This document shows positions 11,389 to 41,198 of a stretch of 64,000 bases of DNA, one piece after another. This DNA comes from a candidate division FCPU426 bacterium (GTDB taxonomy: Bacteria; Oederibacteriota; Muellerivitia; Muellerivitales; Muellerivitaceae), in assembly GCA_963738405.1 (NCBI GenBank), contig CAVTWJ010000014.1, forward strand, positions 160,001 to 224,000, given 5' to 3'. A program made the position numbers and the translations under genes. Each line of letters starts with the position of its first letter. Position 1 is the stretch's first letter. The notes under the pieces were generated by a model that was not told where the DNA came from, did no database searches, and was given only the letters and a program-made list of their open reading frames with translations.

Positions 11389-11529
11389 TTTTTGTTCTCC
11401 TTTTTTCGGACTGTCAATAACTTGCGGGACCGTCTGGGTCGCCTTGATTTTGTTCTTCTTTGTGGGTTTCGATCTGGCCCTGGATTTGCGCAAGGCCGTT
11501 TTTCTCTTAGGTTTGCTTTTCGCTTTCAT

Positions 11530-13323: not shown

Positions 13324-13357
13324 TTTATTTTCTCCATTTTCAAAAAGTTAAATTCTC

Positions 13358-16639: not shown

Positions 16640-16699
16640 AAGAAATTCAGAGGCCCGTATAGAACTGGGTTTATATTAGTTTCCTGAGGGAGGAGCCCC

Positions 16700-23970: not shown

Positions 23971-26900
23971 CTACTTCAAGATCAGCAGTTTACAAGTCGT
24001 CGTGGTGGACTGGCCCTGGGATTTCACCGTGCAGGTCACGATGTATAGCCCGTTGGCCAGGTAGTTCCCCACGTAGTTTTTCTCGTTCCAATAGACCGTG
24101 TGGTTGCCCGTGGAGTCGAACGAGGCTCCCGACACCGTGGTCGACCAGATCAACCGGCCATCGATGGTATAGGCCTTGAGGGTGATATCGGAGTTCGGGT
24201 CAATTCCCTCTTCGCCCGAGGAACCCACCGTCTTGGCGCTGGCATTGGAGCTTCCCGATCCGGTACCGGACAAATTAACCGCCAGGTTTACCCCGTTCCC
24301 CGTGGAGGGGTTCGGGTAGGCGATCACGCTGGCCGCCTTCAAGGCCGCAGACGATCCAGACGGCTCCTGGCCCCAAACTAAGGACCCGCCCTCATAGGCC
24401 GTGACATGGGTCCAAGGCGTGTAGCTGGTATAGGCCGCGTAGCTCCAGTCGTTGTCCTGGAGCATGTTGCTCCAGTCGCTCTTGTTGAAGCGGCTCTGGA
24501 TCTGGATAGCCTGCCCAGGCTGAAGTACCAGATTCCCGGTGAACTTGTAGCTGATGTAGTTGGTCTGGCCGCCCAGGCTGGTGGCTACGGTCGTATGCAA
24601 CACATCACTCGTCACCGAAGTCCCGGCAGGCATCAACCCCGCCCAATCCACCCAGCTTTGGACGCTCTGGTTGGTGCAGTCGCAGTTGAACCAGTAGCGA
24701 ACTTCAACATTATTCAGATTCAAAGCCCCGGACCCTGTGTTGACCACCTCAATGAAGGGGTGAGGGCTGTTGGTCGAATCGGTCGTGATCGACGACAACA
24801 GTTCCACGGTCAAGGCCGCCGCCCCGGAGGGAGTAGGCGTGAAGGTGAAGGTCGCCGTCGGAGGAACCGGCGTATTGGTAAAGGTGAATGTCGCCGTCGG
24901 CGGCACAGGTGTGTTGGTGTGGGTAAAGGTGAAGGTGGCCGTTGGGGGCACCGGCGTGTTGGTGTGCGTAAAGGTGAAGGTAAAGGTGGCCGTTGGCGGA
25001 ACCGACGTGAAGGTCGAAGTGGGTGGAATCGCCGTATTCGTCCTCGTCGCCGTCGGTGGAACCGCTGTGTTGGTGGCCGTCCCAGTAAACGTATAGGTAT
25101 TGGTTGGGGTTTGGGAGACCGTTGGACTAGGCGGAGCCGGAGTGTTGGTAGCGGTTGGAGGCAGCGGCGTGTTCGTGACCGTGGGGGGCACGGGACTATT
25201 CGTACTCGTGGCCGTGGGCGGAACAGGTGTGCTGGTGCTGGTAGATGTCGGAGGAGCCGCCGTGTTCGTAGCCGTGGGTGGTGCCGGAGTATTGGTAGCG
25301 GTCGCCGTAGGCGGAACGGCCGTATTGGTGGATGTGGGTGGCACCGAGGTGAAGGTCGAGGTCGCCGGGATTGCCGTATTCGTCGACGTCGGCGGCACGG
25401 CCGTGCTAGTCCTTGTGGCCGTGGGCGGAACAGCGGTCAAGGTCGCCGTCGGGGTGAAGGTAAAAGTGGAGGTTGGCGGTACGGGACTGTTGGTATTAGT
25501 CGCAGTCGGAGGAATAGCCGTATTCGTCCTCGTCACCGTGGGCGTAAAGGTAAAGCTCGCCGTCGAGGTACGCGTGGCCGTGGACGTTGCCGTCGGTGTC
25601 CCCGTGGCTGTCCAAGTCTTCGTGGGAGTGTTCGTAAAGGTCGGCGTGGCGGGTTGGGGGATGACCTGGATGGCTTCCACCATGGCGCTGGTATCGGTGC
25701 TGGTGGTTCCCGTGAAGGTGATGGTAATGACTCCGCCGGTGGGCGACACGTTATTGATCACCTTGTCGTCCTGGGTGTTGGCGCCCACCTGGGCGTAAAC
25801 GTCCAGGTTGGAAACAGCGGTCGAGCCGTTGACGGCCACGTTGAAAACCCTGTCCCCTGCGGCGAAGTCGCCCGAATAGGTCTCGGCGAATTTCAGGGTG
25901 ACCTGGTAGCTCCCGGCGGGCACGTTGAAGGAATAGCTGAAGCTGTTCCCGTAGCGCTGGGTGTCGTAAAGGGTGGAATCGGAGGTGCCGGTCACGGCCG
26001 CTCCCTCAGCCACGGTGGTTCCGCCGCTGAAGTTTTCATCCGCGGCCCAAACGTTGCTCGTGGTGTCCGTATAAGCCGGACCGCCGGCGTTGACCCGCCA
26101 GCTGGAGGACACAATCGGAGTCGGTGTCGAGGTGACGGTGGGGGTGTGGGTAAAGGTGGCCGTGGGCGGGACGGGGGTGTTGGTGGCCGTGGGGGCCGAC
26201 GGCGTGTTCGTCTTCGTCGGGGTGCTGGTCGACCCATTGGACTGGGTGAAACTGTACGACTCAAAATTAAAGAGTGTCCCGGATCCTCCGGTGAACACGA
26301 AATAAACATCATGCAGGCCGGTCGCGCCCGTGATCGCACAGGTGGCATTTTGCCAGGTCTGGGTTCCTCCCGTGTTGGGCACCGGGCATGTGCCGATAAG
26401 CGTGCCGGTCGTGCTGTCAAGGCGGATCTGGATCGAGCCCCCGCTGACGGTTCCCGCGACGCGGGCGCTGAAGGAGGAAGCGCCGGTCCCAAAACTCATG
26501 TTCCGAACCTGGGTCCAGGAGCCGTTAATAGTACCCGTAATATTCATCCCGCCTTCGGAGCAAACCCCAGTTTGGAGCCCCGATTCTTTGGCCATCATCA
26601 CGGCCCGAAGTGTGGAAAAGGGGTTTTGATTCTTCAAGGCCGCAACACCCGCGGTGGTTGGGGTCACGACCGCCAGGGTACCGTCCGAGTTCACGAAAAG
26701 ACGGTCCAGGTTCACGCTGCGCTGATAGACAGCGTTCCCACTGCAGGTCAGTCCGTTCAGAAGAGCCAGCTCTCGGTTGTGATAGGCGATGTAATAGTTG
26801 CTGCCGATATTGACGATCCCGGCATGGTTATTATTACCGCAGTTATTGGGAGGATTAAATAAAGCCGTCCCGCGATGGGTGAACCCGCTCATAGGGCTGC

Positions 26901-27624
26901 TACTGGTCATGTAATCGATGCTGGCCGCGGGCGAGGCCGAAAAATCCGTCGAGTAGGAAAAATAGTAGGTTCCGTTGATCTTGTTCATGAAGGGCGCCTC
27001 GAAATAACGAGGGGCGTCGATTGAGACCGCGGAACCGCTCACGCTGATCATGTCAGAGTTCAATTTGATGACCCGGGCATTTCCTGGGCCCCCACCCCCG
27101 AAATAAAGATAGGCCTGGCCGTCATCGTCGATGAAGGCGGCCGGATCGAAAACATAAGTGATATTGGTGCCCGGAGTGCTGTTGCTGACCAGCGAATGGC
27201 CCAAGGGATCGGTAAAAGGTCCGGTCGGGCTAGTGCTGCGGGCGACGCCAATGCTGCCGCCCCCGTTCCCGTAGTAAAGGTAATAGAACCCGTTGCGGAA
27301 GATTGTATCCGGGGCATAGGTCAGGCCGGCCCAGGAGGTGTTACTGGCGCTGAACGGTATCCCTTCGTCGGTCCAATTCACCAGATCGTCAGAGGACATG
27401 AGGTAGACATTTGTGATTGAATAACCCGTTTGGCCGGTGATGTCGTGGGAACAATAGATGTACATCCGGCTGCTGGCGGTGTCCCAAAAGGCGGTGGGGT
27501 CAGCGGTGTATTGCTGGTAAATGAGCGGGTTTGCGGAGGCGGGCGAGTTGAATAAAGCGAAACACAACAGGGTCAAAATTGGAAATCCAAAATATCGTTT
27601 CAAGCTGAACTGTTGCCCTTGCAT
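23971..27624 (-). CDS. Secreted GH43 + CBM6 + malectin + Pro/Thr stalk + CBM3 + T9SS-like CTD
   Basis: ADPTA, YCSHD, FDPAAFIDDDGQAYLYFGG, FEAP; CBM6 (FSARVA..IRLDSTTGTLIG..TGG.QTW..HDVYFVF); malectin RVNAGG/LKFAE; CBM3 VRYWF..DWA..NDWSY. Confidence 0.9.
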   Translation of the reverse strand: MQGQQFSLKRYFGFPILTLLCFALFNSPASANPLIYQQYTADPTAFWDTASSRMYIYCSHDITGQTGYSITNVYLMSSDDLVNWTDEGIPFSASNTSWAGLTYAPDTIFRNGFYYLYYGNGGGSIGVARSTSPTGPFTDPLGHSLVSNSTPGTNITYVFDPAAFIDDDGQAYLYFGGGGPGNARVIKLNSDMISVSGSAVSIDAPRYFEAPFMNKINGTYYFSYSTDFSASPAASIDYMTSSSPMSGFTHRGTALFNPPNNCGNNNHAGIVNIGSNYYIAYHNRELALLNGLTCSGNAVYQRSVNLDRLFVNSDGTLAVVTPTTAGVAALKNQNPFSTLRAVMMAKESGLQTGVCSEGGMNITGTINGSWTQVRNMSFGTGASSFSARVAGTVSGGSIQIRLDSTTGTLIGTCPVPNTGGTQTWQNATCAITGATGLHDVYFVFTGGSGTLFNFESYSFTQSNGSTSTPTKTNTPSAPTATNTPVPPTATFTHTPTVTSTPTPIVSSSWRVNAGGPAYTDTTSNVWAADENFSGGTTVAEGAAVTGTSDSTLYDTQRYGNSFSYSFNVPAGSYQVTLKFAETYSGDFAAGDRVFNVAVNGSTAVSNLDVYAQVGANTQDDKVINNVSPTGGVITITFTGTTSTDTSAMVEAIQVIPQPATPTFTNTPTKTWTATGTPTATSTATRTSTASFTFTPTVTRTNTAIPPTATNTNSPVPPTSTFTFTPTATLTAVPPTATRTSTAVPPTSTNTAIPATSTFTSVPPTSTNTAVPPTATATNTPAPPTATNTAAPPTSTSTSTPVPPTATSTNSPVPPTVTNTPLPPTATNTPAPPSPTVSQTPTNTYTFTGTATNTAVPPTATRTNTAIPPTSTFTSVPPTATFTFTFTHTNTPVPPTATFTFTHTNTPVPPTATFTFTNTPVPPTATFTFTPTPSGAAALTVELLSSITTDSTNSPHPFIEVVNTGSGALNLNNVEVRYWFNCDCTNQSVQSWVDWAGLMPAGTSVTSDVLHTTVATSLGGQTNYISYKFTGNLVLQPGQAIQIQSRFNKSDWSNMLQDNDWSYAAYTSYTPWTHVTAYEGGSLVWGQEPSGSSAALKAASVIAYPNPSTGNGVNLAVNLSGTGSGSSNASAKTVGSSGEEGIDPNSDITLKAYTIDGRLIWSTTVSGASFDSTGNHTVYWNEKNYVGNYLANGLYIVTCTVKSQGQSTTTTCKLLILK

Positions 27625-27675
27625 GGGTCCCCCCGAAATCAAATGTTGGGAATGCCCTCAGGCGCATTCCCAGGC

Positions 27676-27709
27676 GAAACCGCTTCCACCTTCAAGTGGA
27701 CCGGTTCAC
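27676..27709. promoter_or_regulatory. LacI-type operator-like sites just downstream of the ECF promoter
   Basis: GAAACCGCTTCC (27676) and near-palindrome GTGGACCGGTTCAC (27696-27709). Confidence 0.5.
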
Positions 27710-27711
27710 TA

Positions 27712-27742
27712 GATTTGTGTTTGGAGAAGTGGGTTTTATTCC
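27712..27742 (-). promoter_or_regulatory. Putative ECF promoter upstream of the GH43-CBM6-malectin-CBM3 gene
   Basis: Minus strand GGAATAAAACccacttctccAAACACaaATC; identical spacing to the other two copies. Confidence 0.72.
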
Positions 27743-27777
27743 AAAGGAGGAAAAAGGAGGGGAAAGACTTGTGTCGA

Positions 27778-30700: not shown

Positions 30701-31410
30701 GAGTTGGTGGAACGGTAGATATTGCTGTTGCCGGAGGACATGGAGAGGACGCCCACATAGATCGTGGCGGAAGCCGAGCCCGAGGTACCGTGGGGGTCGA
30801 AGATCACCCAGGAAAGGCCGTAGCCGGTATCGCCCAGAACCGGGAAGGAACCGACCTGAGTCCAGGAAGCGGCCGAATTGGCGCTCACCCAAAGCCCCTG
30901 CCAACGGGAGGCGAAATAAAGCTTGGAGGTCAGGTTGGGGTCCACCGCCAATCGTTCCCCCGCTTCCCTTCCGTCATTGTTGCCCGCGATGGAGACCGGA
31001 ATGGCATTGGCGGTCCAGGAGTTGCCTTGGTCGGTGGAGCTGAGGATGGTGCCGGCACCCGAGAAGCCCGCGGCGGCGTAGACCACGTTGGCGTTGACGG
31101 GATCGGGCGCGATGCTCTCCCCCCCGAAGTTGTTGCCCCCTCCATACATGTCGGTCAAGGGCACCCATTGGCTTGTGGAATTATTCCAGCGGTAGAAACC
31201 GCCGACATCGGTGCGCGCGTAAAGGAGATTCTGTTGGACAGGGCTGTAGACTAAGCCCGGGACAAAGCCGCCGCCCATAATCGCCACACTCTGCCAGGTA
31301 TAGGCTTGGGCGTAGGACCTTCCAGCACAACCTAAAACAAGACACAGCACCGCCAAAAAGACCGGCCTGCTTAGCACAAATAATTTGATTGGGTTATTCG
31401 AATAGGACAT
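27778..31410 (-). CDS. Secreted GH74 xyloglucanase + Thr/Pro stalk + T9SS-like CTD
   Basis: GGGFVPG, YARTDVGG (catalytic Asp), GERLAVDP, STDQG/STNSG Asp-boxes, LEET, MGDVGG (second Asp); start at 31410 after GGGAG. Confidence 0.9.
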   Translation of the reverse strand: MSYSNNPIKLFVLSRPVFLAVLCLVLGCAGRSYAQAYTWQSVAIMGGGFVPGLVYSPVQQNLLYARTDVGGFYRWNNSTSQWVPLTDMYGGGNNFGGESIAPDPVNANVVYAAAGFSGAGTILSSTDQGNSWTANAIPVSIAGNNDGREAGERLAVDPNLTSKLYFASRWQGLWVSANSAASWTQVGSFPVLGDTGYGLSWVIFDPHGTSGSASATIYVGVLSMSSGNSNIYRSTNSGGSWTLISGGPSNMVTPHASLGTDSNLWIVYDSGGYGPNSVSTGQVWKLNTGTLGWTNETPSIGPGSGAGGYAGICVDHENASHILVSTIDWWGGPDRVLSTANGGGSWSVIAEAGSGSSVFNNNSAIYQNGCSGAPGGAGWAGFVAIDPFNSNNAYYPSGEGGGVWSSANIQASPVSWTYTDNNLEETVPIYMPPAATGGILFSCMGDVGGMRHTNVTQSPALGMYCNPQYTNTNMLDFAESKPNTVVRAGNSTNPSAVNSDVAYSTNNGQTWTPWGSAPPGYTTTGQMGSVAVAADGSRVVVSPYSGYGSPAYASSLGGSWTACSGLPSGAMVASDRSNATTFYATYPSEWVYGNSVTIYESTNSGASFTQVNTIAVNWGDANGNGQWVMPRSVFGEPGEFWVSTYNALFRFTNGGSSVTALANVYEPKGPVGFGKAASGQTHPAVFLSGTVNGTQGIFRCDDGAGVTWTSISNASKPFIPGWIEGDESIYGRCYIAPGARGILYGDIPAGTPTSTPTATRTNTPSPTPSATLTKTSTPSNTITSTGTSSPTPSGTPTRTPTPSPTSTPTPASTSTSTSTVTRTNTPTSTLTATQTSTPTVTKTSTLTSTPTQTLTASSTFTTANTLTSTRTVTATSSPTATLTQTSTATTTTTKTLTPTASSTSTGTFTSTATLPATATRTATNTTTSTPTPTGTITLTPQFSPTNTLSPTPTHSFTSTPTSSSSFTATQTLTATLTSTSTVTTTPTSTHTATRTSTFTMTTTPTLTETPTLTAQFSPTHTLTSTSTLTQTASGTPTPTPTWTVTPTATLTPVNTAASTSTPTPSATASFTITLTRTSTPTFSPSATSTPVFTATPSPSATPTSTPSPALTVTPVSTPLAGHVGLYPNPVPGGTVNILPPSYPGLSKVRIEVFTVNFRKVVDWTEDSVPSGTALHLPLVSRWGGPMANGLYYVVVTTNGGKTIGKLLVLR

Positions 31411-31636
31411 GGTTACTGAAGCTCCCGTTCCATTGTACCTCGATCGCCGCTGGGAGCTATTTGACTTTACCGCCAAACTGACCGTAAAAATATCAGACCA
31501 AAAAAAATAAGCTCGAAAACTTTAAACTTAGAGTGTTAGAAGAAAAAAACCACGCCCTCAACCCAAGATCCACGGAGGGAAGGGGAAGGAAGCCCATTCA
31601 TTCCCCTGCCCGTCCGCAGTTGCCTTGGTACGGCTT

Positions 31637-34600
31637 CTATTTCAAGATCAGCAGTTTACAAGTTGTCGTGGTGGTCTGGCCCTGCGATTTCACCGTGCAG
31701 GTCACGATATATAACCCGTTTGCCAGGTAATTCCCCACGTAGTTTTTCTCGTTCCAATAGACCGAATGGTTGCCGGTGGACCCGATGGAGGCTCCTGAAA
31801 CCATGGTCGACCAGATCAACCGGCCATCGATGGTATAGGCCTTGAGGGTGATCTCGGCGTTCGGGTCGATTCCCTCATCTCCCGAGGAACCCACCGTCTT
31901 GGCGCTGGCATTGGAGCTTCCCGAGCCGGTACCGGATAGATTCACCGCCAGGTTCACCCCGTTCCCTGTGGAGGGGTTCGGGTAGGCGATCACGCTCGCC
32001 GCCTTCAAGGCCGCTGAGGAGCCGGAAGGTTCTTGGCCCCAAACCAGAGACCCGCCCTCATAAGCCGTGATATGGGTCCAAGGCGTGTAGCTGGTGTAGG
32101 CCGCGTAGCTCCAGTCGTTGTCCTGGAGCATGTTGCTCCAGTCGCTCTTGTTGAACCGGCTTTGGATCTGGATAGCCTGCCCAGGCTGGAGAACCAGATT
32201 CCCCGTGAACTTGTAGCTGATGTAGTCGGTCTGGCCGCCCTGGCTGGTGGCAACAGTCGTGTGCAACACATCACTCGTCACTGAAGTCCCGGCAGGCATC
32301 AACCCCGCCCAATCCACCCAGCTTTGGACGCTCTGGTTGGTGCAATCGCAGTTGAACCAGTAGCGCACTTCAACGTTATTCAGGTTCAAGGACCCGGACC
32401 CTGTGTTGACCACCTCAATGAAGGGATGGGGGCTGTTGGTGGAATCGGTCGTGACCGACGACAACAGTTCCACGGTCAAGGCCGCAGCTCCGGAAGGCGT
32501 GGGTGTGAAGGTAGCGGTTGGGGGCACCGGCGTGTTGGTAAAGGTGAATGTCGCTGTGGGCGGCACCGGCGTGTTGGTGTGGGTAAAGGTCGCCGTTGGC
32601 GGAACCGCCGTGCTAGTACTGGTAACGGTCGGAGGCGCTGGGGTATTCGTGACCGTCGGTGGTACCGGCGTATTCGTCACCGTGGGCGGCACCGGACTAT
32701 TGGTAGCCGTTGCCGTAGGCGGAACAGGCGTGCTGGTACTGGTAGATGTCGGAGGAGCCGCCGTATTCGTGGCTGTTGGAGGCGCCGGAGTGTTGGTAAC
32801 CGTCGGCGGAGCAGGCGTATTGGTCACGGTCGGCGGTACCGGGCTGTTGGTAACCGTCGCTGTGGCAGGCACCGAGGTGAAGGTCGAAGTCGGCGGGATT
32901 GCCGTATTCGTCGACGTTGGCGGCACGGCTGTGGCCGTTCTTGTGGCCGTCGACGTAAAGGTAGCGGTTGCGGTCGGCGTCCCCGTGGCTGTCGAAGTCC
33001 TCGTGGGGGTATTTGTAAAGGTTGGCGTAGCCGGTTGCGGAATGACCTGGATGGCTTCCACCATGGCGCTGGTATCGGTGCTGGTGGTTCCCGTAAAGGT
33101 GATGGTAATCACGCCGCCGGTGGGCGACACGTTGTTGATCACCTTGTCGTCCTGGGTGTTGGCGCCCACTTGGGCGTAAACGTCCAGGTTCGAAAGCGCC
33201 GTGCTTCCGTTGACGGCCACGTTGAAAACCCTGTCCCCTGTGGCGAAATCGCCCGAATAGGTCTCGGCGAATTTCAGGGTGACCTGGTAGCTCCCGGCTG
33301 GCACGTTGAAGGAATAGCTGAAGCTGTTCCCGTAGCGCTGGGTGTCGTAAAGGGTGGAATCGGAGGTGCCGGTCACGGCCGCTCCCTCAGCCACGGTGGT
33401 TCCGCCGCTGTAGTTCTCGTCCGCGGCCCAAACGTTGCTCGTGGTGTCCGTGTAAGCCGGACCGCCGGCGTTCACCCGCCAGCTGGAGGACACAATCGGA
33501 GTCGGTGTGGAGGTGACGGTGGGGGTGTGGGTAAAGGTGGCCGTGGGCGGGACGGGGGTGTTGGTGGCCGTGGGGGCCGACGGAGTGTTTGTCTTGGTCG
33601 GCGTAAAGGTAAAGGTCGCCGTCGGGTTGGTTACCCCCGAGACAACTCCCACGAAACTCGTGACGCTAGAGCCGGTCAAGGAATAGGTGAAACTGTTACC
33701 CGAGACTGCTACGGGGGATTTCGCAACAAGGTTATTGCTGCCGTCCGTCACCCAGGGGGTCACCGAAGTCACGTTGACGCCGTTAATGCTGAAAGTCTGG
33801 CTGGTGGTTGAACTGTTGTTGTTGATGGCGACGAAGACGATGGTCTGGGGTGAAGAGGTATTGGTATTTTTGAATGCGCTCACATTAACACCTGATGTCG
33901 GGCTCGCGGTTGCGCCCATGCGGTAATAACCAGGCCGGATGAACTTGCTGTAATTGCCCAGGACATAGGCCTTGATGGTGAAGGCGTTATTGCTGATCAG
34001 GTCGGTGAGCCACCAATAGTGAAAAGCGTTCATATTGGAATTAACCAGGCAGTTTTGTATCCATCCCGCTTCCGTCAATGCGCCCGGAATATCGGTGCTA
34101 TTCCCAGACATCTCAGTTTCCCACCATTCCTGATTCGTCACATGGGTGAAACCAAAGGAAGAAAGGGGCCCCGGATTGGGGGAACCATAAAGATGGGTCC
34201 CGATGATGCCGATCATGGGGGCCACGGTCGTGTCGTCCATGGCGGTCGAGGCCAGGTTCATCCCTCCGGTGTTGTCCGGCTCGGGGAGCATGATCTTGGT
34301 CGAAAGACCCGCGCTTTGGAGGGCGCTATGGAAAGCATTCGCGTAAACATCAAACTGGCCCGCCGTCCAAAGGCAGGCTTCGTAGGTGGGGTTGAAATTG
34401 GGTTCGTTCTGGATGGAAAGGGCGTAAAGGGGGGCGCCATGGCTTTGGGCATATTGGATGAAAGAGACTTGGTAAGAAGCTAATCCTGTGTCGGCGCTGT
34501 TGGGGGAGCCGGAGCCGGCGCCCAAAAAGGTATCGTTGCTGGCGCCGCCATTGACGTTATTGTTCGCCTTGTATTGGGCCGGGGGTGACCATTCGGTAGC

Positions 34601-34903
34601 CCATAAAAGGACATTGGGATTGACCGAATGGGCTGTCGCGAGGGTACTCACTTCCGGCGAGAAGTTGTTGTTGGGGTCGATGCGTGCCCGGAGGGAGCTG
34701 ATCCCGATGTGGCCGTTCACGTTGTCCTCGGCGAACAGGGCCTGGCCTAGGCTTCCGATACCGCTCCAGGCGCTGGAGGCCCCGATGCAATGGATGTACT
34801 GGTTGGTCTGGGTGGCGTCAACGGTACAGGTGCCGGCCAGTGCGGCAGAAGCAGCCGTGAAAATCACCGAGATGAAAAGACCCAGGAAATATTTTTTACC
34901 CAT
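31637..34903 (-). CDS. Secreted GH30 + malectin + Pro/Thr stalk + CBM3 + T9SS-like CTD
   Basis: WSPPA, QNEPN, WETEMS, FHYWW, GNYSKFIRPGYYR; tail near-identical to the 23971-27624 gene. Confidence 0.88.
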   Translation of the reverse strand: MGKKYFLGLFISVIFTAASAALAGTCTVDATQTNQYIHCIGASSAWSGIGSLGQALFAEDNVNGHIGISSLRARIDPNNNFSPEVSTLATAHSVNPNVLLWATEWSPPAQYKANNNVNGGASNDTFLGAGSGSPNSADTGLASYQVSFIQYAQSHGAPLYALSIQNEPNFNPTYEACLWTAGQFDVYANAFHSALQSAGLSTKIMLPEPDNTGGMNLASTAMDDTTVAPMIGIIGTHLYGSPNPGPLSSFGFTHVTNQEWWETEMSGNSTDIPGALTEAGWIQNCLVNSNMNAFHYWWLTDLISNNAFTIKAYVLGNYSKFIRPGYYRMGATASPTSGVNVSAFKNTNTSSPQTIVFVAINNNSSTTSQTFSINGVNVTSVTPWVTDGSNNLVAKSPVAVSGNSFTYSLTGSSVTSFVGVVSGVTNPTATFTFTPTKTNTPSAPTATNTPVPPTATFTHTPTVTSTPTPIVSSSWRVNAGGPAYTDTTSNVWAADENYSGGTTVAEGAAVTGTSDSTLYDTQRYGNSFSYSFNVPAGSYQVTLKFAETYSGDFATGDRVFNVAVNGSTALSNLDVYAQVGANTQDDKVINNVSPTGGVITITFTGTTSTDTSAMVEAIQVIPQPATPTFTNTPTRTSTATGTPTATATFTSTATRTATAVPPTSTNTAIPPTSTFTSVPATATVTNSPVPPTVTNTPAPPTVTNTPAPPTATNTAAPPTSTSTSTPVPPTATATNSPVPPTVTNTPVPPTVTNTPAPPTVTSTSTAVPPTATFTHTNTPVPPTATFTFTNTPVPPTATFTPTPSGAAALTVELLSSVTTDSTNSPHPFIEVVNTGSGSLNLNNVEVRYWFNCDCTNQSVQSWVDWAGLMPAGTSVTSDVLHTTVATSQGGQTDYISYKFTGNLVLQPGQAIQIQSRFNKSDWSNMLQDNDWSYAAYTSYTPWTHITAYEGGSLVWGQEPSGSSAALKAASVIAYPNPSTGNGVNLAVNLSGTGSGSSNASAKTVGSSGDEGIDPNAEITLKAYTIDGRLIWSTMVSGASIGSTGNHSVYWNEKNYVGNYLANGLYIVTCTVKSQGQTTTTTCKLLILK

Positions 34904-34996
34904 CGAAGCACCCCTTTGAATTTTCGCGACTTAAATTTCAATTAAATCGTTGTGAGCCAAGGACAAGGCATGGAAAGGCGTAGGGACCCTGACATC

Positions 34997-35027
34997 GATT
35001 AGTGTTTGGAGAATGCCGGTTTATTCC
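34997..35027 (-). promoter_or_regulatory. Putative ECF promoter upstream of the GH30-malectin-CBM3 gene
   Basis: Minus strand GGAATAAACCggcattctccAAACACtaATC matches the motif upstream of the sigma gene. Confidence 0.75.
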
Positions 35028-35081
35028 CGTCAGGCGACGGTTTTTATCCGGGAAGCGGGGAGGCTTATTTTATTAGGAAAA

Positions 35082-36413
35082 TCAGGGGTTTTGAGGGTGT
35101 TTAAGGTGGTATGTCCCCAACCATTGGCTTAAAGCTTGGTCGCTCGGGTTCAGGCGGAGGGCCTGTTCCAGGCATTGGAGAGCCTGGGCATTCTGGCCCA
35201 ATCGCAGGTAAACAATTCCCAGGTTCCGCCAGGCCCGGCTGTCCTGCGGGTTCGCCTGAACCGCCTGCTCATAGGGCCCTGTCAAACTGGAAGCCTGGTT
35301 CGCCGTGCCCGGGGTTGCCACGGCGGCGGGGAGTTCGAAACGCACTTCAACCTTCGATTTGGCGACTCCTTCCGGGAGGGGAGAGGGCATGGGCGTCGCC
35401 ACTACCGTAACCGGGAGGGCCTGAACCGTCACAGGTTTGGGGGAAACTGGGGTGGGATTGGCAAATTCGTATCCCACGCTAATACGGTGCGAGGTTCCCA
35501 GGTCGCCGTAAGGAACAAAGGCGTAGTCCAATTGAAAAGAACCTAACTTTACACCCGCTCCGGCAGTGAAACCCGTCAACCCGTTGATTTGGTTGTCAGA
35601 GAGCGCCCCTTGGTAACCCACCCGAAGGCTATAGTCCCGTTCAATGGTTCCTTCCAAACCGCATTGGAGGCGGCTCACGCCATTGGGCTCCCAGTCCCCC
35701 ACAAGAAGGGGGCAAAGATCCGCGCCCTTTCCCAAATACAGGATCGTCGAGAGGCCTAGGCGCAGATCCTGGGCCGGAGTTATGCCGGAAAGATCCGTCC
35801 CCAGTCCCGAGTAGGTCAAACCCAATCGAAAGTCAGGTGCCGGGATAAAGAGGGCGCCCACATCGCCGGACATACTCGTATAAAGCGCCTCAACGATCTT
35901 TTGTTGGAATCCGTGCAAGGCGATCCCCAGGGAAAATTCCCGCGCCACCCTAGTTCCCCAACCCAGGCTGAAGGCAGCGTCGCTGTCGGTGAAGGATCCA
36001 AGGTAAACCCCATTGGGATCCCGTTCATCCAAATTTCCCCAGGAAACATATTGAAGGGCCCCGGCGAAACCGCCCAGGGAGCCCGCGGGTAATCCGAAAA
36101 GAAGGGTCTCCTCGAAGGAACCTGCCAGATAGCTGTTATGGTTAATGGAAAGACTGGCGGCGCGCAATTGGGATAGCCCCGCGGCGTTAAAGAACAATGC
36201 CGAAGGATCGTCGGCGAGCCCCGCGAGGGCGTCCCCCAATGCGTCCGCCCGGGCCGAGGCCCCGAGAGCGGTGAGCGGAGTCTCCAGACCCGCGCCTGAA
36301 GAAACCGTCTGGACCGGAAGAGCCGTCTGCGGCAAGAAAAGAAACATGACGACGACCAAAATCGTTTTAGACCATCGTCGCGCCGTTTTGAAAGGGCGGA
36401 AAACCATTATCAT
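35082..36413 (-). CDS. PorV/PorQ-like (UPF0164-type) outer-membrane beta-barrel with C-terminal Pro linker and TPR
   Basis: Signal peptide; GASARADALGDA..LADDPSALFFNAAGL N-terminal signature; amphipathic strands ending LDYAFVPYGDLGTSHRISVGYEF; TPR AWRNLGIVYLRLGQ...ALRLNP. Confidence 0.8.
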   Translation of the reverse strand: MIMVFRPFKTARRWSKTILVVVMFLFLPQTALPVQTVSSGAGLETPLTALGASARADALGDALAGLADDPSALFFNAAGLSQLRAASLSINHNSYLAGSFEETLLFGLPAGSLGGFAGALQYVSWGNLDERDPNGVYLGSFTDSDAAFSLGWGTRVAREFSLGIALHGFQQKIVEALYTSMSGDVGALFIPAPDFRLGLTYSGLGTDLSGITPAQDLRLGLSTILYLGKGADLCPLLVGDWEPNGVSRLQCGLEGTIERDYSLRVGYQGALSDNQINGLTGFTAGAGVKLGSFQLDYAFVPYGDLGTSHRISVGYEFANPTPVSPKPVTVQALPVTVVATPMPSPLPEGVAKSKVEVRFELPAAVATPGTANQASSLTGPYEQAVQANPQDSRAWRNLGIVYLRLGQNAQALQCLEQALRLNPSDQALSQWLGTYHLKHPQNP

Positions 36414-37840
36414 TTTTCGACCGCCAGAACCTGGGTCTTAAAGTTATCGGCCCGGCCCGAGGAGTAATTCAGCTCGACGCGGTAAAAATAATGTCCCGGC
36501 GCGAAGGCGGAAATGTTGAGAGTGCTTGATTGCAATCCAGACCCCTTGGGATCGCTCAGGGTGGCGGCAAGGTTTCCCCAGGCGTTCCAGATCTTGATAT
36601 TGGCGGTACCCGACTCGGCCATGGTGTAAACGAACTGCACGGTGTTCCCGCTGGTGGGGTTGGGAGCCACGTAGGGGTTGCCCCCAACAGGCGCGGGCGG
36701 TGTGGAAACAGGCGTAGGACAGGCGCCCGCCAGATTCATTTGGCCGTAATCGCTCGCGTTCGAATAATCGTCCGATTCGCCATTCCAGATGATTTGACCG
36801 TCCCGGCAATTGCCCCCGTTGTGGTTCACATCGACCCCTACATCAAAACCTAAAACCGTTCCGGGATTGGGACTGCCTATTCCTAATGTGGACCAGGGGA
36901 TCGAGGCCTCAATCACATATCCGGCGGGGATCGTCGTGGTCCGCATGCTGACCCCCGCGGTCCTTCCCTGGGACTCGGTAGCTGTCGTATCGTTCCATCG
37001 GAAAAAATATTCGAAGTCGGCATTCGTAACCGTGACACCTCGTGAATCCGCCGTATCCAGATAAAGTTCCACCGTCGAATTGACCCATACGGAGGCTGAT
37101 CCTGTATTCGTGAGCTGACTGTCAGTGACCGTTACGCCCAGATAAAGATTTGTCGAGTCCCATAGGGTCTTAAATTGGGCCGTGGTGCCATAAACATTGC
37201 CCAGCACAGTTTTGTTGACGGTATTCCAGCCTGTCGGGATTTCCCAGGGCCATTCGTTCAAAACCCCGTCCACGCTGACGCCCGCTTGGCAGGCGGAAGG
37301 TGTTTGGGGCGTGGGGGTGGGGTTGAGCGGGGCCCCCGAGAAGAGGTATTCCCGGGGTATATATTCCTGGGCTTGGGAAGGGCTCTGCCAGGCCAGTTGG
37401 ATGAGGTCCGTAGTTGGGTTGGCGCCGTTGGTGAAATAATCCAACTCGATCGAGACGGGCGTATTGGCGGTGAGCGTAATGACCCCTGCAAAGCCTCGGA
37501 TAGGCGGGGGGAAATCGGTCCATTGGTTGATGAGAACCTGTCCGTTGATGATCAGGCTCACACCCCCATTCACATCTGCGATGAAGGTGTAGGGTTCGCT
37601 ATAGGCGGGTTCCACTTGGCCCGTCCACTTCACCGAAAAGGAGGTGCCCGACATGCCCGGCTGGGGGGGACAGCCAAACCAGCGATAGCTGATCAGAGGA
37701 TCCACCACCGTTACCGCCGGGCTGGTCAAATTGGAGTTAATGTAATAGACGCCCTTGAGGCCGTCGCCGTTGAACTGGGCGAAGGAGGGTTTGGGGAGGC
37801 AAAGCAGAACAGCGCAAAGGGCGAATGGGATCCGTTTCAA
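36410..37840 (-). CDS. Secreted non-catalytic PA14 + CBM9-like protein with a divergent T9SS-like CTD
   Basis: GDGLKGVYY..FSVKWTGQV..LAWQSPS (PA14); VDGVLNEW..LWDSTNLYLGVTVTD..IEASIPW (CBM9-like); VAPNP..IWN..G..PGHYFYRV CTD; stop overlaps the PorV-like start. Confidence 0.8.
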   Translation of the reverse strand: MKRIPFALCAVLLCLPKPSFAQFNGDGLKGVYYINSNLTSPAVTVVDPLISYRWFGCPPQPGMSGTSFSVKWTGQVEPAYSEPYTFIADVNGGVSLIINGQVLINQWTDFPPPIRGFAGVITLTANTPVSIELDYFTNGANPTTDLIQLAWQSPSQAQEYIPREYLFSGAPLNPTPTPQTPSACQAGVSVDGVLNEWPWEIPTGWNTVNKTVLGNVYGTTAQFKTLWDSTNLYLGVTVTDSQLTNTGSASVWVNSTVELYLDTADSRGVTVTNADFEYFFRWNDTTATESQGRTAGVSMRTTTIPAGYVIEASIPWSTLGIGSPNPGTVLGFDVGVDVNHNGGNCRDGQIIWNGESDDYSNASDYGQMNLAGACPTPVSTPPAPVGGNPYVAPNPTSGNTVQFVYTMAESGTANIKIWNAWGNLAATLSDPKGSGLQSSTLNISAFAPGHYFYRVELNYSSGRADNFKTQVLAVEK

Positions 37841-37925
37841 GGCAGCCTCGAGAATGGTTCATTCGGACCGACCAAACCATTATTTACCCGGGGCCTAACA
37901 ACGCACCAGAGAATATTCGTGTTCT

Positions 37926-38603
37926 TTAGGGAGCCGTCGGCTGGAGCTTGATCCGGATGTTCTTGGACATGTGTGCCTCGCCCGCCTGCACATCAATGCG
38001 GTAATCGCCCGTGCCCGCCGCTTCCCCGTTATCCAAAAGGCCGTCCCATTTAAAGTCCCACCGCCCGGCCTGGACAAAACCGGCGTAAAGGGCCCTTACT
38101 TCCTTTCCGCCCGAATCGAGGATACGGACCGTCACGAGGGATTTTTGCGGCGCGTCCACCAGAACACTCAATTCTTGGCCTTCCTGACCGGGTCCGGCCG
38201 ATAAGGGTTGAATGGGAACGGGTTTTTGGACCACAGGTTTCAAGGTTGAAACGCTGGATTTTTCAATGGGTTGTTGGACGGTCTGCGGTTGAACCTGCAG
38301 AGGAACTTCCATTTTAGTTTGGGGCCAGAACTTCCAAAGGGCAGTCCCCCCGGCGGCCAGAACCACCAAAAGAAGCTTGGCCGCGCCGGACCAACCAACC
38401 GGGCCCGCGCCTCCGGGATGGGGAAGGGATTGCAGGCCCTGGGGGAGTGTCGGCTGGGGAAGGCCGGTGGCAAGATAATGCTGTTGGAGCATTTTCTCAT
38501 AGCTCAAAGCGGCATCGGGGGAACTTTCCAAAAGCTTGGAAAGGGCCGCATGTTCGGCCTCGCTCAGTTCCCTCGTGAAAAATTCTTGGACTAAATCAGC
38601 CAT
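37926..38603 (-). CDS. Membrane anti-sigma factor with periplasmic FlgD-Ig/CTD-like domain
   Basis: N-terminal ASD-like ELSEAEHAALSKLLESSPDA (no Zn-binding Cys/His motif); one TM; VRILDSGGKEVRAL..KWDG..NG..GDYRI FlgD-Ig pattern; overlaps the sigma stop. Confidence 0.75.
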   Translation of the reverse strand: MADLVQEFFTRELSEAEHAALSKLLESSPDAALSYEKMLQQHYLATGLPQPTLPQGLQSLPHPGGAGPVGWSGAAKLLLVVLAAGGTALWKFWPQTKMEVPLQVQPQTVQQPIEKSSVSTLKPVVQKPVPIQPLSAGPGQEGQELSVLVDAPQKSLVTVRILDSGGKEVRALYAGFVQAGRWDFKWDGLLDNGEAAGTGDYRIDVQAGEAHMSKNIRIKLQPTAP

Positions 38604-39168
38604 TTTCGCCTTCTTTTATGAACTGCTCGACTAGCACCTTGAGCGCCTTTTTGCACCGGGAAAGCCTCGACATCACGGTCCCCAAGGGGATCTTGAGCGT
38701 CTTTCCGACCTCGATATAACTCATTTCCTTCATTTCTCGTATTTGAATAATCTCCCGGCATTCCTGGCCTATCTTTTCCAGGCATTTCTCGATGATTCCC
38801 AGCTTGAAGCGTTTTTCCTGTTCCCGATCCCCAGCTTCCTGCCGGTCCTTGGCCGCGGATTGGAGCAAAAAATCTAATTCAGCGTGTTCTTGACTCACCA
38901 GCTTCGCCCTTTGCCGGTACCGGTTGTGGCACTTAAAGATGCAAATCTGCGTCAGCCAGGTCGAGAGACTGGACCGGAACTCGAATTCGGGCAATTTTTC
39001 AAAGGCTGTGATAAAGGTTTCTTGGACCAAATCTTCAGCCTCCGGGTCCTGATAGCCCAATAAATACACGCAGTTTCGATAAAGTCTTTCCCGATAGGTG
39101 ACGAAAAACTGGGTCTTAGCTTGATCGTCGCCTTGGAGGATCTTTTGAACCAACTCCCGTTCGTCCAA
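38596..39168 (-). CDS. ECF (sigma-70 group 4) RNA polymerase sigma factor
   Basis: AEDLVQETF..AF, FRSSLSTWL (region 2); SYIEVG..L.IPLGTVMSRLSR (region 4); 190 aa. Confidence 0.93.
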   Translation of the reverse strand: MDERELVQKILQGDDQAKTQFFVTYRERLYRNCVYLLGYQDPEAEDLVQETFITAFEKLPEFEFRSSLSTWLTQICIFKCHNRYRQRAKLVSQEHAELDFLLQSAAKDRQEAGDREQEKRFKLGIIEKCLEKIGQECREIIQIREMKEMSYIEVGKTLKIPLGTVMSRLSRCKKALKVLVEQFIKEGENG

Positions 39169-39182
39169 GAGTGCCCCTTACA

Positions 39183-39213
39183 GATGAGTGTTTTAACGTG
39201 AATGGTTTATTCC
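39183..39213 (-). promoter_or_regulatory. Putative autoregulatory ECF promoter (GGAATAAACC-N10-AAACACTCATC)
   Basis: Ends 14 nt before the sigma start codon; same 31-nt pattern and spacing as 34997-35027 and 27712-27742. Confidence 0.75.
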
Positions 39214-39274
39214 ATTTTGAACCCAAATGGGAGGTTTTCATCAAAAAACTTTCTCTTTAAAAAGCTGATTTCCC

Positions 39275-41089
39275 TTAACCTCGCTGGGATTTTTTCCGGA
39301 ATTGCTGTGGTGATTGAGCGGTTTTTCGCCGAAAGAACCGCGCGAAGTGGGAGCCGGGTTTGAATCCGCAGGATTTGGCGACTTGAGAGACTGGCAGGCT
39401 TCCAGTTTTCAAAAGCCGTTTCGCTTCCTCCAGCCGCAGGTTCTGTAAGTAGTTTTCCAAGCCCATTCCCGCGGTTTTCTTGAAATGACGGCTAAGAGTG
39501 GCGGTCGATACATCCGCAAGCCTCGCGAGTTTGGCGATTCTCAATGGTTCTCGGAAATGCTCGTTCAAATAATCACGGACCTTTTCCATTGAAAAGGCCG
39601 TCTTCAAAGCGCCAGGACCCTGCATGAGACGCAAAAGTTTTTCCAACGCGTCCTTGAAAGAGAAAACCATTTCCTGCGTGGTCCCGGCTTTCTCCAGGGA
39701 AAGCACCAGGTTTTGGTGGAGTTGATCGGCCTCCTTTTCGCTTAAGTTCCCTTGGGCGCGGATCGTATCTCTCATCTGGATCAAAGCGTACTGCAGGTGC
39801 AGGCGGATGCCGTCAGGGTCGTGCATGGAGAGGGTCAGGACCTGTTTCAAGAATTCATCCAGCACCGCTTCCATGCCTGAGAGGGATGAAACCTCGATGC
39901 GCTTCTTAAGTTCCCGCAAGAGGCTCGACAATTCCAAGATCCCTTCTGAAACTTCCAACCGGACGGGTTTGAAAAAAACAATTTCCTGGCCCGTTGCCCG
40001 GCCCAAGTGCAGGGCCAACACCGCCTGCTGATAGGAATCCAAAAGCGTTTCACCGGGCGTGACAGTTTCTCCCACTCCCACCAGAACAGGCCCCTCCAAT
40101 TCTTCCTGGGCGAAAGCGTGAATCCTTTCGGTAAGTTCCCTCAATTCATCCCGGCGTTGGGGCCGGCTCTTGGAAAGATCGGGCGAGGTGATGAAAAGTG
40201 CGCCGTAATTTTCAAGCCGTCCTCCCAAGGTTTGGGGCAGGGTCTTCGCGAAGCGGAAAGCCCGCCGCTGGAAACGGTAGATCCGAAACATTTCCTCAAT
40301 GGGGTCTCTCTTCTTCCCTTGAATGGTCAGCGGAATGGCTGTCAGGACCGTCGTCGGAATACGGCTGATGCCGATATCGGACTTGATCCAGTCCATTTTC
40401 GGAACTTCGGTGTTCCAAAGGGGCGTAGCCTGCCGGGTGGGAAGTCCCAGGGCCCAATCCATGAAATAACTGTGGGGAAAATGCCTGGAGAATATTTTCG
40501 TCGAAAGTTCCTGAAGACGGCGGGGCGCGTTGGAGAGATTTTCCCGGACCAAGATATCGGCGAACAGTTTCAACGCTTCCCGGTAAGCCGAAAGAACCGG
40601 CCCTTCCAGAACGGGTGTATCGAGCATGACGCGGACAAACTGCCGGAATTCGGGGTTTTCAGGAGTTGCGGTTTGTCCCGTCAATTGGTTCCAGCTCATT
40701 TTGAGGAGGGGGTAGGTCACTTCCTCTTTTGCGAAGGCGCCGGATAGGATCGTCCCAAACCGCACCTTCCCCCGCCGGATGGGCATGAAAATGTCATAAA
40801 ACCCCAGGGTCTCCAAAAGAAGCGGCTGGTCCTTGCCCTGTTTCGCCTCATATTCTGGATCAGTGAGTTTGTCCCAATTAAAAGATTGTCCGTATTTCTT
40901 CTCGAAATCGAAGAGCGAGGCGTCCCGGCGGTGATAATTGGCGGCCAACCATCCCTCGGTGCCGCTTCCCGGGTCTTTGGTGATGATGAAACAATTCAGG
41001 TCGACGTAATACCGAAGGATGTTGATGAACCCTTCATATCCAATGAGGTTCTCGAACACCCGGAAGGTTTTGGAAGGACGGGGAGCCAT
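39275..41089 (-). CDS. AraC-family regulator with large N-terminal sensory region (PocR-like plus degenerate GGDEF-like)
   Basis: C-terminal LSRHFKKTAG..YLQNLRLEEAKRLL..VAKSCGF..HFARFFRRKT..SP..FR; central VLVGVG..LLDSYQQA. Confidence 0.85.
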   Translation of the reverse strand: MAPRPSKTFRVFENLIGYEGFINILRYYVDLNCFIITKDPGSGTEGWLAANYHRRDASLFDFEKKYGQSFNWDKLTDPEYEAKQGKDQPLLLETLGFYDIFMPIRRGKVRFGTILSGAFAKEEVTYPLLKMSWNQLTGQTATPENPEFRQFVRVMLDTPVLEGPVLSAYREALKLFADILVRENLSNAPRRLQELSTKIFSRHFPHSYFMDWALGLPTRQATPLWNTEVPKMDWIKSDIGISRIPTTVLTAIPLTIQGKKRDPIEEMFRIYRFQRRAFRFAKTLPQTLGGRLENYGALFITSPDLSKSRPQRRDELRELTERIHAFAQEELEGPVLVGVGETVTPGETLLDSYQQAVLALHLGRATGQEIVFFKPVRLEVSEGILELSSLLRELKKRIEVSSLSGMEAVLDEFLKQVLTLSMHDPDGIRLHLQYALIQMRDTIRAQGNLSEKEADQLHQNLVLSLEKAGTTQEMVFSFKDALEKLLRLMQGPGALKTAFSMEKVRDYLNEHFREPLRIAKLARLADVSTATLSRHFKKTAGMGLENYLQNLRLEEAKRLLKTGSLPVSQVAKSCGFKPGSHFARFFRRKTAQSPQQFRKKSQRG

Positions 41090-41198
41090 AGCCCAAGTTA
41101 ACCCTCTTTTTAGAAAATAGTCACGAAAGATTTAATTCTGGGAAAGGTCATTGCGAGTTCGAAGTTCGGGAATCTTCAGCGAAATGGATCTGTAAGAT

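Follow-up and report, generated by a model that had tools for sequence, protein, structure and literature searches.

Within a 64-kb stretch of DNA from a candidate division FCPU426 bacterium (GenBank assembly GCA_963738405.1, contig CAVTWJ010000014.1, positions 160,001 to 224,000; referred to below as the window), we identified a cassette of four genes that joins a sigma factor of the extracytoplasmic function (ECF) type and its candidate anti-sigma factor to parts of a type IX secretion system (T9SS), namely a secreted lectin with a C-terminal sorting domain (CTD) and an outer-membrane barrel of the PorV/PorQ family. The cassette, which occupies positions 35082-39213 of the window on the minus strand, is a real module that recurs in relatives of the same family. 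New in this analysis is a conserved ECF-type promoter, found in front of the sigma gene, of nearby GH30/malectin and GH43 genes, and of the orthologous enzyme genes of the relatives. Judged from the sequence, the sigma factor appears to control the glycan-degrading genes beside it, and the unit is probably a sensor of extracellular plant glycans that turns the neighbouring enzyme genes on.

Genes and domains of the cassette

An initial annotation, made from the letters of the DNA, had described four co-oriented genes in which the sigma/anti-sigma and the lectin/barrel pairs overlap. All four open reading frames (ORFs) are present and overlap in this way (Table 1), and scans with curated hidden Markov models (HMMs) confirmed the domains of all four products. 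The sigma factor scored 47.6 bits (1.4e-12) with Sigma70_r2, 29.8 bits (4.6e-7) with Sigma70_r4_2, and 85.9 bits with TIGR02937 (cut-off 42.9); it consists of regions 2 and 4 only and belongs to the ECF (group 4) sigma factors, and the curated-model scan returned no named equivalog at its cut-off. Residues 142-208 of the anti-sigma factor candidate match FlgD_ig (47.4 bits, 1.9e-12).

The product of the third gene had been described as a non-catalytic protein with PA14 and CBM9-like domains and a divergent CTD of its own. We found both domains (PA14, 59.2 bits, 5.1e-16; CBM9_1, 109.4 bits, 2.6e-31), and the CTD is a subtype specific to the cassette. Residues 391-457 of the 476-aa protein match TIGR04183 (Por_Secre_tail) with 30.5 bits (cut-off 23); the score with the Pfam model PF18962 was 25.1, under the cut-off of 27. 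Since the TIGR04183 threshold is passed and the host genome encodes an SprA-like protein (238.1 bits, cut-off 200), we assign the domain to the type-A sorting domains. The fourth product is, as proposed, a PorV-like barrel with a TPR tail: it passes the family model NF033709 (PorV_fam) with 107.9 bits (cut-off 90) and has a TPR match at residues 381-433. The scores against PorV proper (NF033710, 36.9; cut-off 250) and PorQ proper (NF033711, 99.2; cut-off 220) lie under both equivalog cut-offs; the protein is therefore a member of the PorV/PorQ family and an orthologue of neither.

Table 1. Genes of the cassette, candidate regulon members and promoter-like sites, in window coordinates (PWM, position weight matrix).
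Feature	Length (aa)	Coordinates	Strand	Domains and remarks
ECF (group 4) sigma-70 factor	190	38596..39168	-	Sigma70_r2, Sigma70_r4_2, TIGR02937; TTG start
Anti-sigma factor candidate, single-pass	225	37926..38603	-	FlgD_ig; 8-nt overlap with sigma gene
Secreted non-catalytic lectin cargo	476	36410..37840	-	Signal peptide; PA14 and CBM9-like domains; type-A CTD (T9SS)
PorV/PorQ-family outer-membrane barrel, TPR tail	443	35082..36413	-	NF033709; 4-nt overlap with lectin gene
ECF-type promoter-like site before sigma gene		39184..39213	-	GGAATAAA, 15 nt, CACTCAT; PWM 23.2 (maximum 24.9); in training set
ECF-type promoter-like site between barrel stop and GH30-like gene		34998..35027	-	GGAATAAA, 15 nt, CACTAAT; PWM 24.9
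ECF-type promoter-like site upstream of GH43 gene		27713..27742	-	GGAATAAA, 15 nt, CACAAAT; PWM 18.9
GH30/GH59-like + malectin + CBM3 + C-terminal sorting domain (type 2)	1088	31637..34903	-	Pfam; candidate regulon member; ATG at 34903
GH43 + CBM6 + malectin + CBM3 + C-terminal sorting domain (type 2)	1223	23971..27642	-	Pfam; candidate regulon member

Conservation of the cassette in the family

The 3.18-Mb source genome encodes three paralogues of the sigma factor (43-47% identity) elsewhere. One belongs to a second copy of the cassette on contig 11, with the four genes in identical order and 42-53% identity; a third copy, on contig 23, comprises a 125-aa cargo, a barrel with TPR tail, a sigma and an anti-sigma gene, and contig 9 holds a sigma/anti-sigma (FlgD_ig) pair alone. 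Full-length matches to an anti-sigma profile were obtained in all 30 other genomes of the family (2-14 each), and in the rest of the phylum (99 genomes, including that of the window) nearly all matches cover the Ig part only. Around such matches we collected 57 loci, which come from 27 relatives within the family, and examined their 58 anti-sigma genes. A sigma gene is adjacent to 56 of them, a PorV-like barrel gene on the same strand accompanies 50, and 49 of these 50 barrels carry the TPR tail. All four parts are present at 48 of the 58 anti-sigma genes, one of which borrows its cargo from a second cassette on the same contig; at three loci that lack one part each (L183-L185), a contig end is near. 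With 48 complete cassettes, the arrangement is far beyond chance, and the conservation in relatives that a genuine module calls for is found.

Three gene orders occur in the relatives, namely SACB (20), CBSA (16) and SABC (12), where S denotes sigma, A anti-sigma, C cargo and B barrel. The sigma/anti-sigma and cargo/barrel adjacencies are invariant across all three orders, with gaps of mostly -4 to +22 nt between cargo and barrel. A less biased check in the reverse direction, carried out on five well-assembled genomes, placed all 20 TPR-tailed barrels (those with a match extending through the tail) within 6 kb of an anti-sigma profile match; tail-less PorV paralogues are not near such matches. 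In a tree of 47 cassettes we distinguished at least six classes, each present in several genomes and each uniform in gene order and cargo type, from which we conclude that the classes are older than the radiation of the family and have persisted side by side.

None of 78 PorV-family loci from other lineages contained the cassette; the underlying barrel-profile scan (three-row alignment) recovered only two close relatives (L054 and L055) and therefore says little about spread beyond the family. Worldwide, the anti-sigma family comprises 278 representative clusters at E ≤1e-30, a count that includes giant proteins with many FlgD_ig repeats; in databases its members are named only "hypothetical" or "FlgD Ig-like domain containing protein".

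Individual loci deviate from this scheme. In genome G052, the lectin gene (L170, 6313-7797) falls into two ORFs, one of 494 aa for the body and one of 126 aa for the CTD; in G054, an anti-sigma gene (L161/L054, 7947-8657) falls into ORFs for the N-terminal domain (148 aa) and the Ig domain (78 aa). Either the copies are decaying, or the splits are frameshifts or errors of the assembly. A different family of the phylum has, at L177 (G039:C2, 7111-9424), a sigma/anti-sigma (FlgD_ig) pair and, behind it, a gene for a 347-aa protein whose TPR tail is similar; no PorV match was obtained for this protein, which may be a divergent or a different outer-membrane partner.

A conserved promoter and the candidate regulon

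Upstream of the sigma genes we found a conserved pair of boxes, GGAATAAA and a CACTAAT-like element, separated by a spacer of 13-15 nt; the first box, as G[GA]AATA, is present in 50 of 61 sigma upstream regions. A position weight matrix (PWM) built from 32 instances, with a maximum score of 24.9, finds only three matches in the entire window, all of them on the minus strand and each ahead of a gene (Table 1). The -35 box of the site before the sigma gene starts 45 nt before the TTG start codon. The site that follows the barrel gene lies outside the training set; it reaches the maximum possible score, is the best of the genome, and its -10 box ends 94 nt before the ATG of the GH30-like gene. 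This site and the one upstream of the GH43 gene have TTCTCCAAACAC.AATC in common.

At a threshold of at least 20 bits, the source genome holds 7 sites compared with a mean of 2.1 (maximum 4) in shuffled sequences, and 5 of the 7 lie at cassettes, the two tandem sites ahead of a serpin gene (see below) among them. The loci of the relatives gave 82 matches in 880 kb versus 2-5 in shuffles; 31 stand ahead of sigma genes and 30 ahead of other genes. In relatives of the lectin class, an equivalent site follows the barrel gene and precedes a gene for a GH30/GH59 enzyme with CBM3, with or without malectin (L034, L041, L048, L146, L148, L152, L154, L170); one variant has GH44 at the target and another GH62. 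The promoter targets of the classes with NHL-headed cargos include NHL-repeat giants. Around the -10 box, the extra promoters resemble the sigma promoter of their own cassette more than those of others (7.58 versus 6.05 of 12 nt), a difference reached in none of 5000 permutations.

The cargo genes in the loci of the relatives had no promoter match assigned to them, with L039 as a possible exception, so that in the CBSA order cargo and barrel are linked to the sigma pair without obviously being its targets. Beside the contig-23 cassette, a divergently oriented serpin gene (443 aa, Serpin 342 bits; L002, G000:C23:160001-180000, 7136-8714, minus strand) has two tandem copies of the ECF-type promoter in its upstream region (20.3 bits each). 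Among the 50 regions that possess the -35 box, about half have it at a distance of 41-46 nt from the start codon of the sigma gene. When positions 27500-41300 of the window were scanned for terminators and sigma-70 promoters, the counts did not exceed the shuffle level and no terminator was found in the intergenic gaps, which makes the scan uninformative.

Cargo heads

Besides PA14 with CBM9, the cargos carry ConA-like lectin domains with DUF11, small NHL propellers, SBBP propellers or an IgGFc-binding-like domain. The heads are mostly binding modules, with one class that has a pectate lyase and malectin head, and NHL-headed cargos are paired with NHL giants as promoter targets. One whole class has bare-CTD cargos that consist of a signal peptide and a CTD of about 90 aa; we counted at least 12 of these cassettes (11 in relatives and that on contig 23).

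Folds of the barrel and the anti-sigma factor

The structural model of the barrel (mean predicted local distance difference test score, pLDDT, 74) has 14 strands at residues 87-316, a disordered linker of about 50 residues (321-369) and four helices at 371-438. Its top matches among solved structures in Foldseek are the PorV chains 8gl6_F (1.3e-12, root-mean-square deviation (rmsd) 5.6) and 6h3i_F (2.9e-10), at an rmsd of about 6 Å; both structures contain the PorV chain of the SprA-PorV translocon. FadL, TbuX and TodX rank lower (E about 1e-8 to 1e-7, rmsd 8-13 Å), so that the barrel groups with PorV ahead of FadL.

In the model of the anti-sigma candidate (pLDDT 79), three confidently modelled N-terminal helices are followed by one transmembrane helix (72-91), a disordered linker and a beta-sandwich (146-218). 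The sandwich is closest to the FlgD Ig domain (Foldseek, 2.3e-4; profile against PDB, 4.6e-12), and the solved T9SS CTDs of PorZ, PorU, NucA, RemA and RgpB follow at 3e-3 to 1e-2 in Foldseek. These data bear out the description of the protein as a single-pass membrane protein with a FlgD-Ig-type C-terminal domain; together with its co-oriented sigma neighbour, the predicted N-in single-pass topology makes it a candidate member of the membrane anti-sigma factors. It is not a FlgD hook-cap protein: the match is to the Ig-like domain only, the score with NF005176 is 47.5 (cut-off 230), a transmembrane helix is present, and the gene follows that of a sigma factor.

According to the initial annotation, the Ig domain of the anti-sigma factor is of the same fold class as the CTDs on the secreted enzymes encoded around the cassette. 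This holds at the level of the fold only, because profile-profile comparison separates the domain families. With hhalign, the cargo CTD is related to the enzyme CTDs (90%), and the two types of enzyme CTD to each other (98%); the anti-sigma Ig domain reaches 65% with the cargo CTD, 33% with type 2 of the enzyme CTDs and 1% with the commoner type 1. We therefore rejected membership of the Ig domain in the sequence family of the enzyme CTDs. Across the genome, an HMM of the cargo CTD gave strong matches to the three cassette cargos and to no other protein.

Evidence for a possible physical coupling

A complex of three chains was predicted from the barrel (residues 35-443), the lectin CTD and the periplasmic part of the anti-sigma factor as the scored partner. 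The three runs scored 0.51, 0.51 and 0.52, compared with 0.00 in all three controls, in one of which the barrel was replaced and the CTD kept; the runs agree in at least 43% of the contacts, and the pLDDT of the partner is at least 63. The verdict of the procedure is weak support. In its calibration, 116 of 157 solved complexes and 2 of 215 mismatches attained the pass mark, and scores of at most 0.60 account for 18 of the 157 complexes and for both mismatches. The initial annotation had the barrel couple to the anti-sigma factor through the CTD-like domain of the latter. The coupling itself passes weakly; a contact specifically through the Ig/CTD-like domain is a putative one.

We also compared the distance matrices of the parts across 47 cassettes after removal of the sigma signal. 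Barrel core and cargo CTD form the most strongly co-diverging pair (partial correlation 0.66), which, with the adjacency of their genes in 48 cassettes, is indirect evidence that the barrel may bind the CTD of its cargo. The anti-sigma Ig domain co-diverges with the barrel core (0.49), with the cargo CTD (0.43) and with the TPR tail (0.21).

A proposed signalling route and its rivals

We propose, with about even confidence, that the cassette encodes a cell-surface signalling unit made of T9SS parts, in which the barrel holds a CTD-tagged head and contacts the anti-sigma factor, and a ligand of the head frees the sigma factor. In such a unit, the PA14/CBM9 lectin would be exported and held at the surface by its cognate barrel via the sorting domain, in the way that PorV and PorQ hold PorU and PorZ in Bacteroidota (PMC7712824). 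The C-terminal linker and the TPR tail of the barrel would hang into the periplasm, where the anti-sigma factor, anchored in the inner membrane, would reach up with its long linker and FlgD-type Ig domain and touch the barrel. At rest, the cytoplasmic three-helix domain of the anti-sigma factor would hold the ECF sigma factor. Binding of plant-wall glycan by the lectin would change the state of the barrel, inactivate the anti-sigma factor and release the sigma factor, which would then use GGAATAAA-N15-CACTAAT promoters to transcribe its own operon together with the GH30/malectin and GH43 genes next to it. What we infer here is that the barrel displays the lectin at the surface and touches the anti-sigma factor, what the signal is, and that the sigma factor is sequestered. 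A sensor role of cargo and barrel is favoured by the predominance of binding modules among the cargo heads, by the lack of promoter matches assigned to cargo genes, and by a second barrel-TPR fusion of the genome that is followed by a histidine kinase and a response regulator (see below). The initial interpretation, in which external glycan or secretion load controls the sigma factor through a lectin-displaying barrel, is as a whole partly supported.

Several observations weigh against this proposal. The loci were selected by anti-sigma matches, and the HMMs were built from paralogues of the source genome itself. The promoter is inferred from sequence only; in the source genome, matches of at least 17 bits are not enriched overall (18 versus 7-16 in shuffles), and the geometry at the sigma genes leaves a leader of about 10 nt that begins at the ribosome-binding site, which implies either near-leaderless transcripts or a further role of the box. 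No Pfam or NCBIfam anti-sigma domain was found in residues 1-95 of the anti-sigma candidate, and the Atlas leads for this segment (zf-HC2 0.89/0.88, DUF4880 0.87, RseA_N 0.84) all stay below 0.9. The pass in complex prediction is of the weak class, in which, by the tool's own statement, wrong cases outnumber right ones unless there is a good prior. The co-divergence figures are suggestive only, because the cassettes share ancestry and are not independent, and the low value for the TPR tail does not favour the tail as the specific contact of the Ig domain. The bare-CTD cassettes have no ligand-binding head and are not explained by an external ligand. Finally, a search of the genome for a PorU-type sortase body found none and matched CTD-like C-termini only, and a search for GldM gave no match under conditions in which the control also matched nowhere, so that absence of GldM is not established; both bear on how the cargo would be handled after export.

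The bare CTDs are explained most directly by a model patterned on PorA of Porphyromonas gingivalis, in which the CTD of the cargo, while in the periplasm, binds the Ig domain of the anti-sigma factor and frees the sigma factor, the barrel being a sink that clears the CTD from the periplasm by carrying the cargo to the surface; the unit would then report export or anchoring capacity and not external glycan. PMC12152298 provides the precedent: in the periplasm, the CTD of PorA is by itself able to bind the sensor PorY and to activate PorX-SigP, PorA tethered to the inner membrane works too, and a build-up of periplasmic PorA is proposed to raise signalling. The model also agrees with the cargo CTD being a distinct subtype, confined within the source genome to the cassettes, with its co-divergence with the Ig domain, and with the weak relatedness of the two domains in hhalign. 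It is the main rival of our proposal, and we regard it as rather unlikely. The complex score fell from 0.51 to 0.00 when the barrel was replaced and the CTD kept (an in silico result, and weak), the model assigns no role to the TPR tail conserved on 49 of 50 barrels, and a pure secretion monitor would not need heads that match the regulated products, as lectins do glycoside hydrolases and NHL propellers do NHL giants.

A further reading is co-regulation without any physical link of lectin and barrel to the anti-sigma factor: the sigma and anti-sigma factors would form an ordinary ECF pair whose Ig domain senses alone, be it a glycan fragment or envelope stress, and lectin and barrel would be a surface protein with its anchor that share the regulon or merely the neighbourhood. 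Ig-like domains can bind glycans, the SACB order puts cargo and barrel downstream of an autoregulated sigma operon, and other PorV-family barrels of the genome follow CTD cargos with no regulator nearby. We consider this reading improbable, since the four parts have stayed together through three gene orders and at least six ancient classes, and the proximity to anti-sigma matches is a property of the TPR-tailed barrels (20 of 20) that the tail-less PorV paralogues do not share. Moreover, cargo and barrel lie upstream of the sigma promoter in the CBSA order, where no promoter match is assigned to the cargo gene, the co-divergence of Ig domain and barrel core goes further than the history of the sigma factor accounts for, and the complex prediction passes, if weakly. 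For a chance neighbourhood or an artefact of ORF calling there is nothing to be said beyond the mechanical calling of the ORFs; with every part above a curated domain threshold and the arrangement recurring at 48 of 58 anti-sigma genes, we give it a negligible probability.

PorV-family barrels elsewhere in the genome

A profile search indicates about 18 PorV/PorQ-family barrels in the source genome. Several are encoded right behind giant CTD cargos, the stop codon of the cargo gene overlapping the start codon of the barrel gene (contigs 1, 5, 16, 19 and 22; loci L134-L143), an arrangement that suggests one private barrel per surface protein. The C-terminal tails of these barrels vary and comprise fn3, OmpA-like, TPR or no domains. 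On contig 13 (L144, G000:C13:34001-49000, 5820-11037), genes for a 400-aa protein, a barrel-TPR fusion (617 aa; 49 bits with PorV_fam, below the cut-off), a HAMP histidine kinase and an OmpR-type regulator stand in a row. Like the cassette, this unit combines a cargo gene, a PorV-family barrel fused to TPR and an inner-membrane transducer; it differs in having the histidine kinase and the OmpR-type regulator where the cassette has the anti-sigma and sigma factors. The barrel architecture thus pairs with two kinds of inner-membrane transducer.

We further suggest, more tentatively than the proposed route itself and at somewhat less than even prospects, that barrels of the PorV family that have a periplasmic tail make up a general class of transducers in the outer membrane, in place of TonB-dependent ones. 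They would dock exchangeable CTD-tagged heads at the cell surface (the PA14/CBM9 lectin, a ConA-like lectin, an NHL or SBBP propeller) and report the state of these through the periplasm to a dedicated inner-membrane partner, which is the anti-sigma factor with its Ig domain here and a kinase elsewhere. The version with a bare CTD may serve as a bait or report occupancy. If proteases at the surface cleaved the exposed CTD, for instance, this might turn on the serpin gene and thus a protease inhibitor.

Surroundings of the cassette in the window

The initial annotation had placed the cassette inside an island of genes for carbohydrate-active enzymes (CAZymes), and Pfam annotation of the neighbours bears this out. 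The minus-strand run around the cassette encodes a deacetylase, a GH30-like enzyme, GH43 with CBM6, malectin and CBM3, GH30/59 with malectin and CBM3, GH28 with GH53, and PL4 with CBM3; a GH127 gene of the same island is on the plus strand. The gene just upstream of the sigma gene (39275-41089) encodes an AraC-type regulator, which we rejected as a fifth part of the cassette, since a homologue occurs in only two loci of the relatives and lies several kb off.

Nine large genes of the island (17681-56615) encode proteins with two related types of C-terminal sorting domain. Six of them have the type YPNP...LANGxYYVxVT...KLLxLR, and three (GH43, GH30/malectin and PL4) the type DPN..ITLKAYT..VYWNE..LANGLYIV..KLLILK; both island genes behind an ECF-type promoter carry the second type. 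Long antisense ORFs opposite the Pro/Thr-rich linkers of the enzymes (e.g., 32324-33811 on the plus strand; up to 495 aa) are artefacts of biased composition and no genes. The island is bordered by genes of a Kdp-type potassium pump (9316-17395), with an E1-E2 (P-type) ATPase gene and kdpA on the minus strand and, next to them on the plus strand, the kdpD sensor kinase gene followed by a gene for an OmpR-type response regulator. At 60186-61196 (minus strand), the window encodes a Fic/DOC domain protein with a C-terminal MarR-type winged helix.

Comparison with known systems

We found no description of the cassette layout, a PorV-family barrel together with an anti-sigma/ECF sigma pair, in the literature, articles being considered without their supplements. 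The initial annotation had likewise known of no such system, which stands for the layout; a path of similar parts is described in P. gingivalis, where an ECF sigma factor is under the control of a small CTD cargo that has a lectin-like head and is bound by PorV at the surface (PMC7712824, PMC12152298). That path (PorA-PorV-PorY-PorX-SigP) resembles the cassette in its CTD cargo, PorV-family barrel and ECF sigma factor, and the CTD itself can signal there. The layout differs, because P. gingivalis uses a kinase and no anti-sigma factor. Its genes are dispersed, the two-component system of the sensor kinase PorY and the PglZ regulator PorX is the transducer, SigP has no anti-sigma factor, PorV is a general shuttle without TPR, and the regulon is the T9SS. 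The cassette, in contrast, is one gene unit with an Ig-domain anti-sigma factor, a private TPR-tailed barrel, and neighbouring secreted enzymes as candidate regulon. It contains no kinase or response regulator and has the anti-sigma factor in that place, for which reason we do not regard it as a member of the PorA-PorXY-SigP type.

The logic of outer-membrane protein, anti-sigma factor and ECF sigma factor is shared with TonB-dependent signalling of the FecIRA type (PMC2729926, PMC9249621) and with the ECF/anti-sigma/SusC-like systems of Bacteroides polysaccharide utilization loci (PMC2709373); so are autoregulation, adjacent nutrient-acquisition genes and the presence of many paralogous units of differing specificity per genome. 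The cassette differs by its 14-strand barrel of the PorV/FadL class, by a C-terminal TPR tail instead of an N-terminal signalling domain, and by a ligand-binding part that is a separate CTD-tagged protein. In domain scans, the barrel had no Plug, TonB_dep_Rec or STN match and the anti-sigma factor no FecR or DUF4974 match, which excludes membership in the FecIRA type.

The SigI/RsgI systems of Clostridium thermocellum also comprise paralogous sigma/anti-sigma pairs, carbohydrate-binding sensor heads that include PA14, and secreted plant-wall enzymes as targets. They belong to a monoderm, the CBM or PA14 head is fused to the anti-sigma factor, and the sigma factor is of the SigI type and not ECF (PMC6852018, PMC10328401); in the cassette, the head is a separate secreted protein, with an outer-membrane barrel in between. 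The PorU-PorV and PorZ-PorQ pairs (PMC7712824) likewise unite a PorV/PorQ-family barrel with one CTD-retaining protein, as do the cassettes, in which the genes of cargo and barrel are neighbours and often overlap by 4 nt; the PorU and PorZ pairs are parts of the sorting machinery with neither TPR tail nor regulator. The unit may work like TonB-dependent cell-surface signalling and the Bacteroides systems, and serve a purpose like that of SigI/RsgI, and is a member of none of those compared; the module and its candidate regulon are well supported and the physical relay is a putative one.

Significance

For diderm bacteria, signalling across the envelope to ECF sigma factors is, to our knowledge, known almost only via TonB-dependent transducers, and we know of regulation linked to the T9SS only from PorA/PorXY of one oral pathogen. 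If our proposal is true, the cassette would represent a third design, in which a T9SS-type shuttle barrel and a CTD-tagged lectin are joined directly to a sigma/anti-sigma pair, in a module of which a genome holds several copies that differ in their sensor heads and have target genes to match. It would offer a testable answer to the role of the many unexplained PorV/PorQ paralogues outside Bacteroidota and a set of naturally orthogonal triples of sigma factor, anti-sigma factor and promoter, in which the promoter specificity can be read. Should tailed PorV-family barrels prove to be a general class of transducers, they would amount to a plug-in sensor system built from the parts of a secretion system. 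For the organisms themselves, the module would provide a lead to how uncultured soil bacteria choose which plant-wall enzymes to make.

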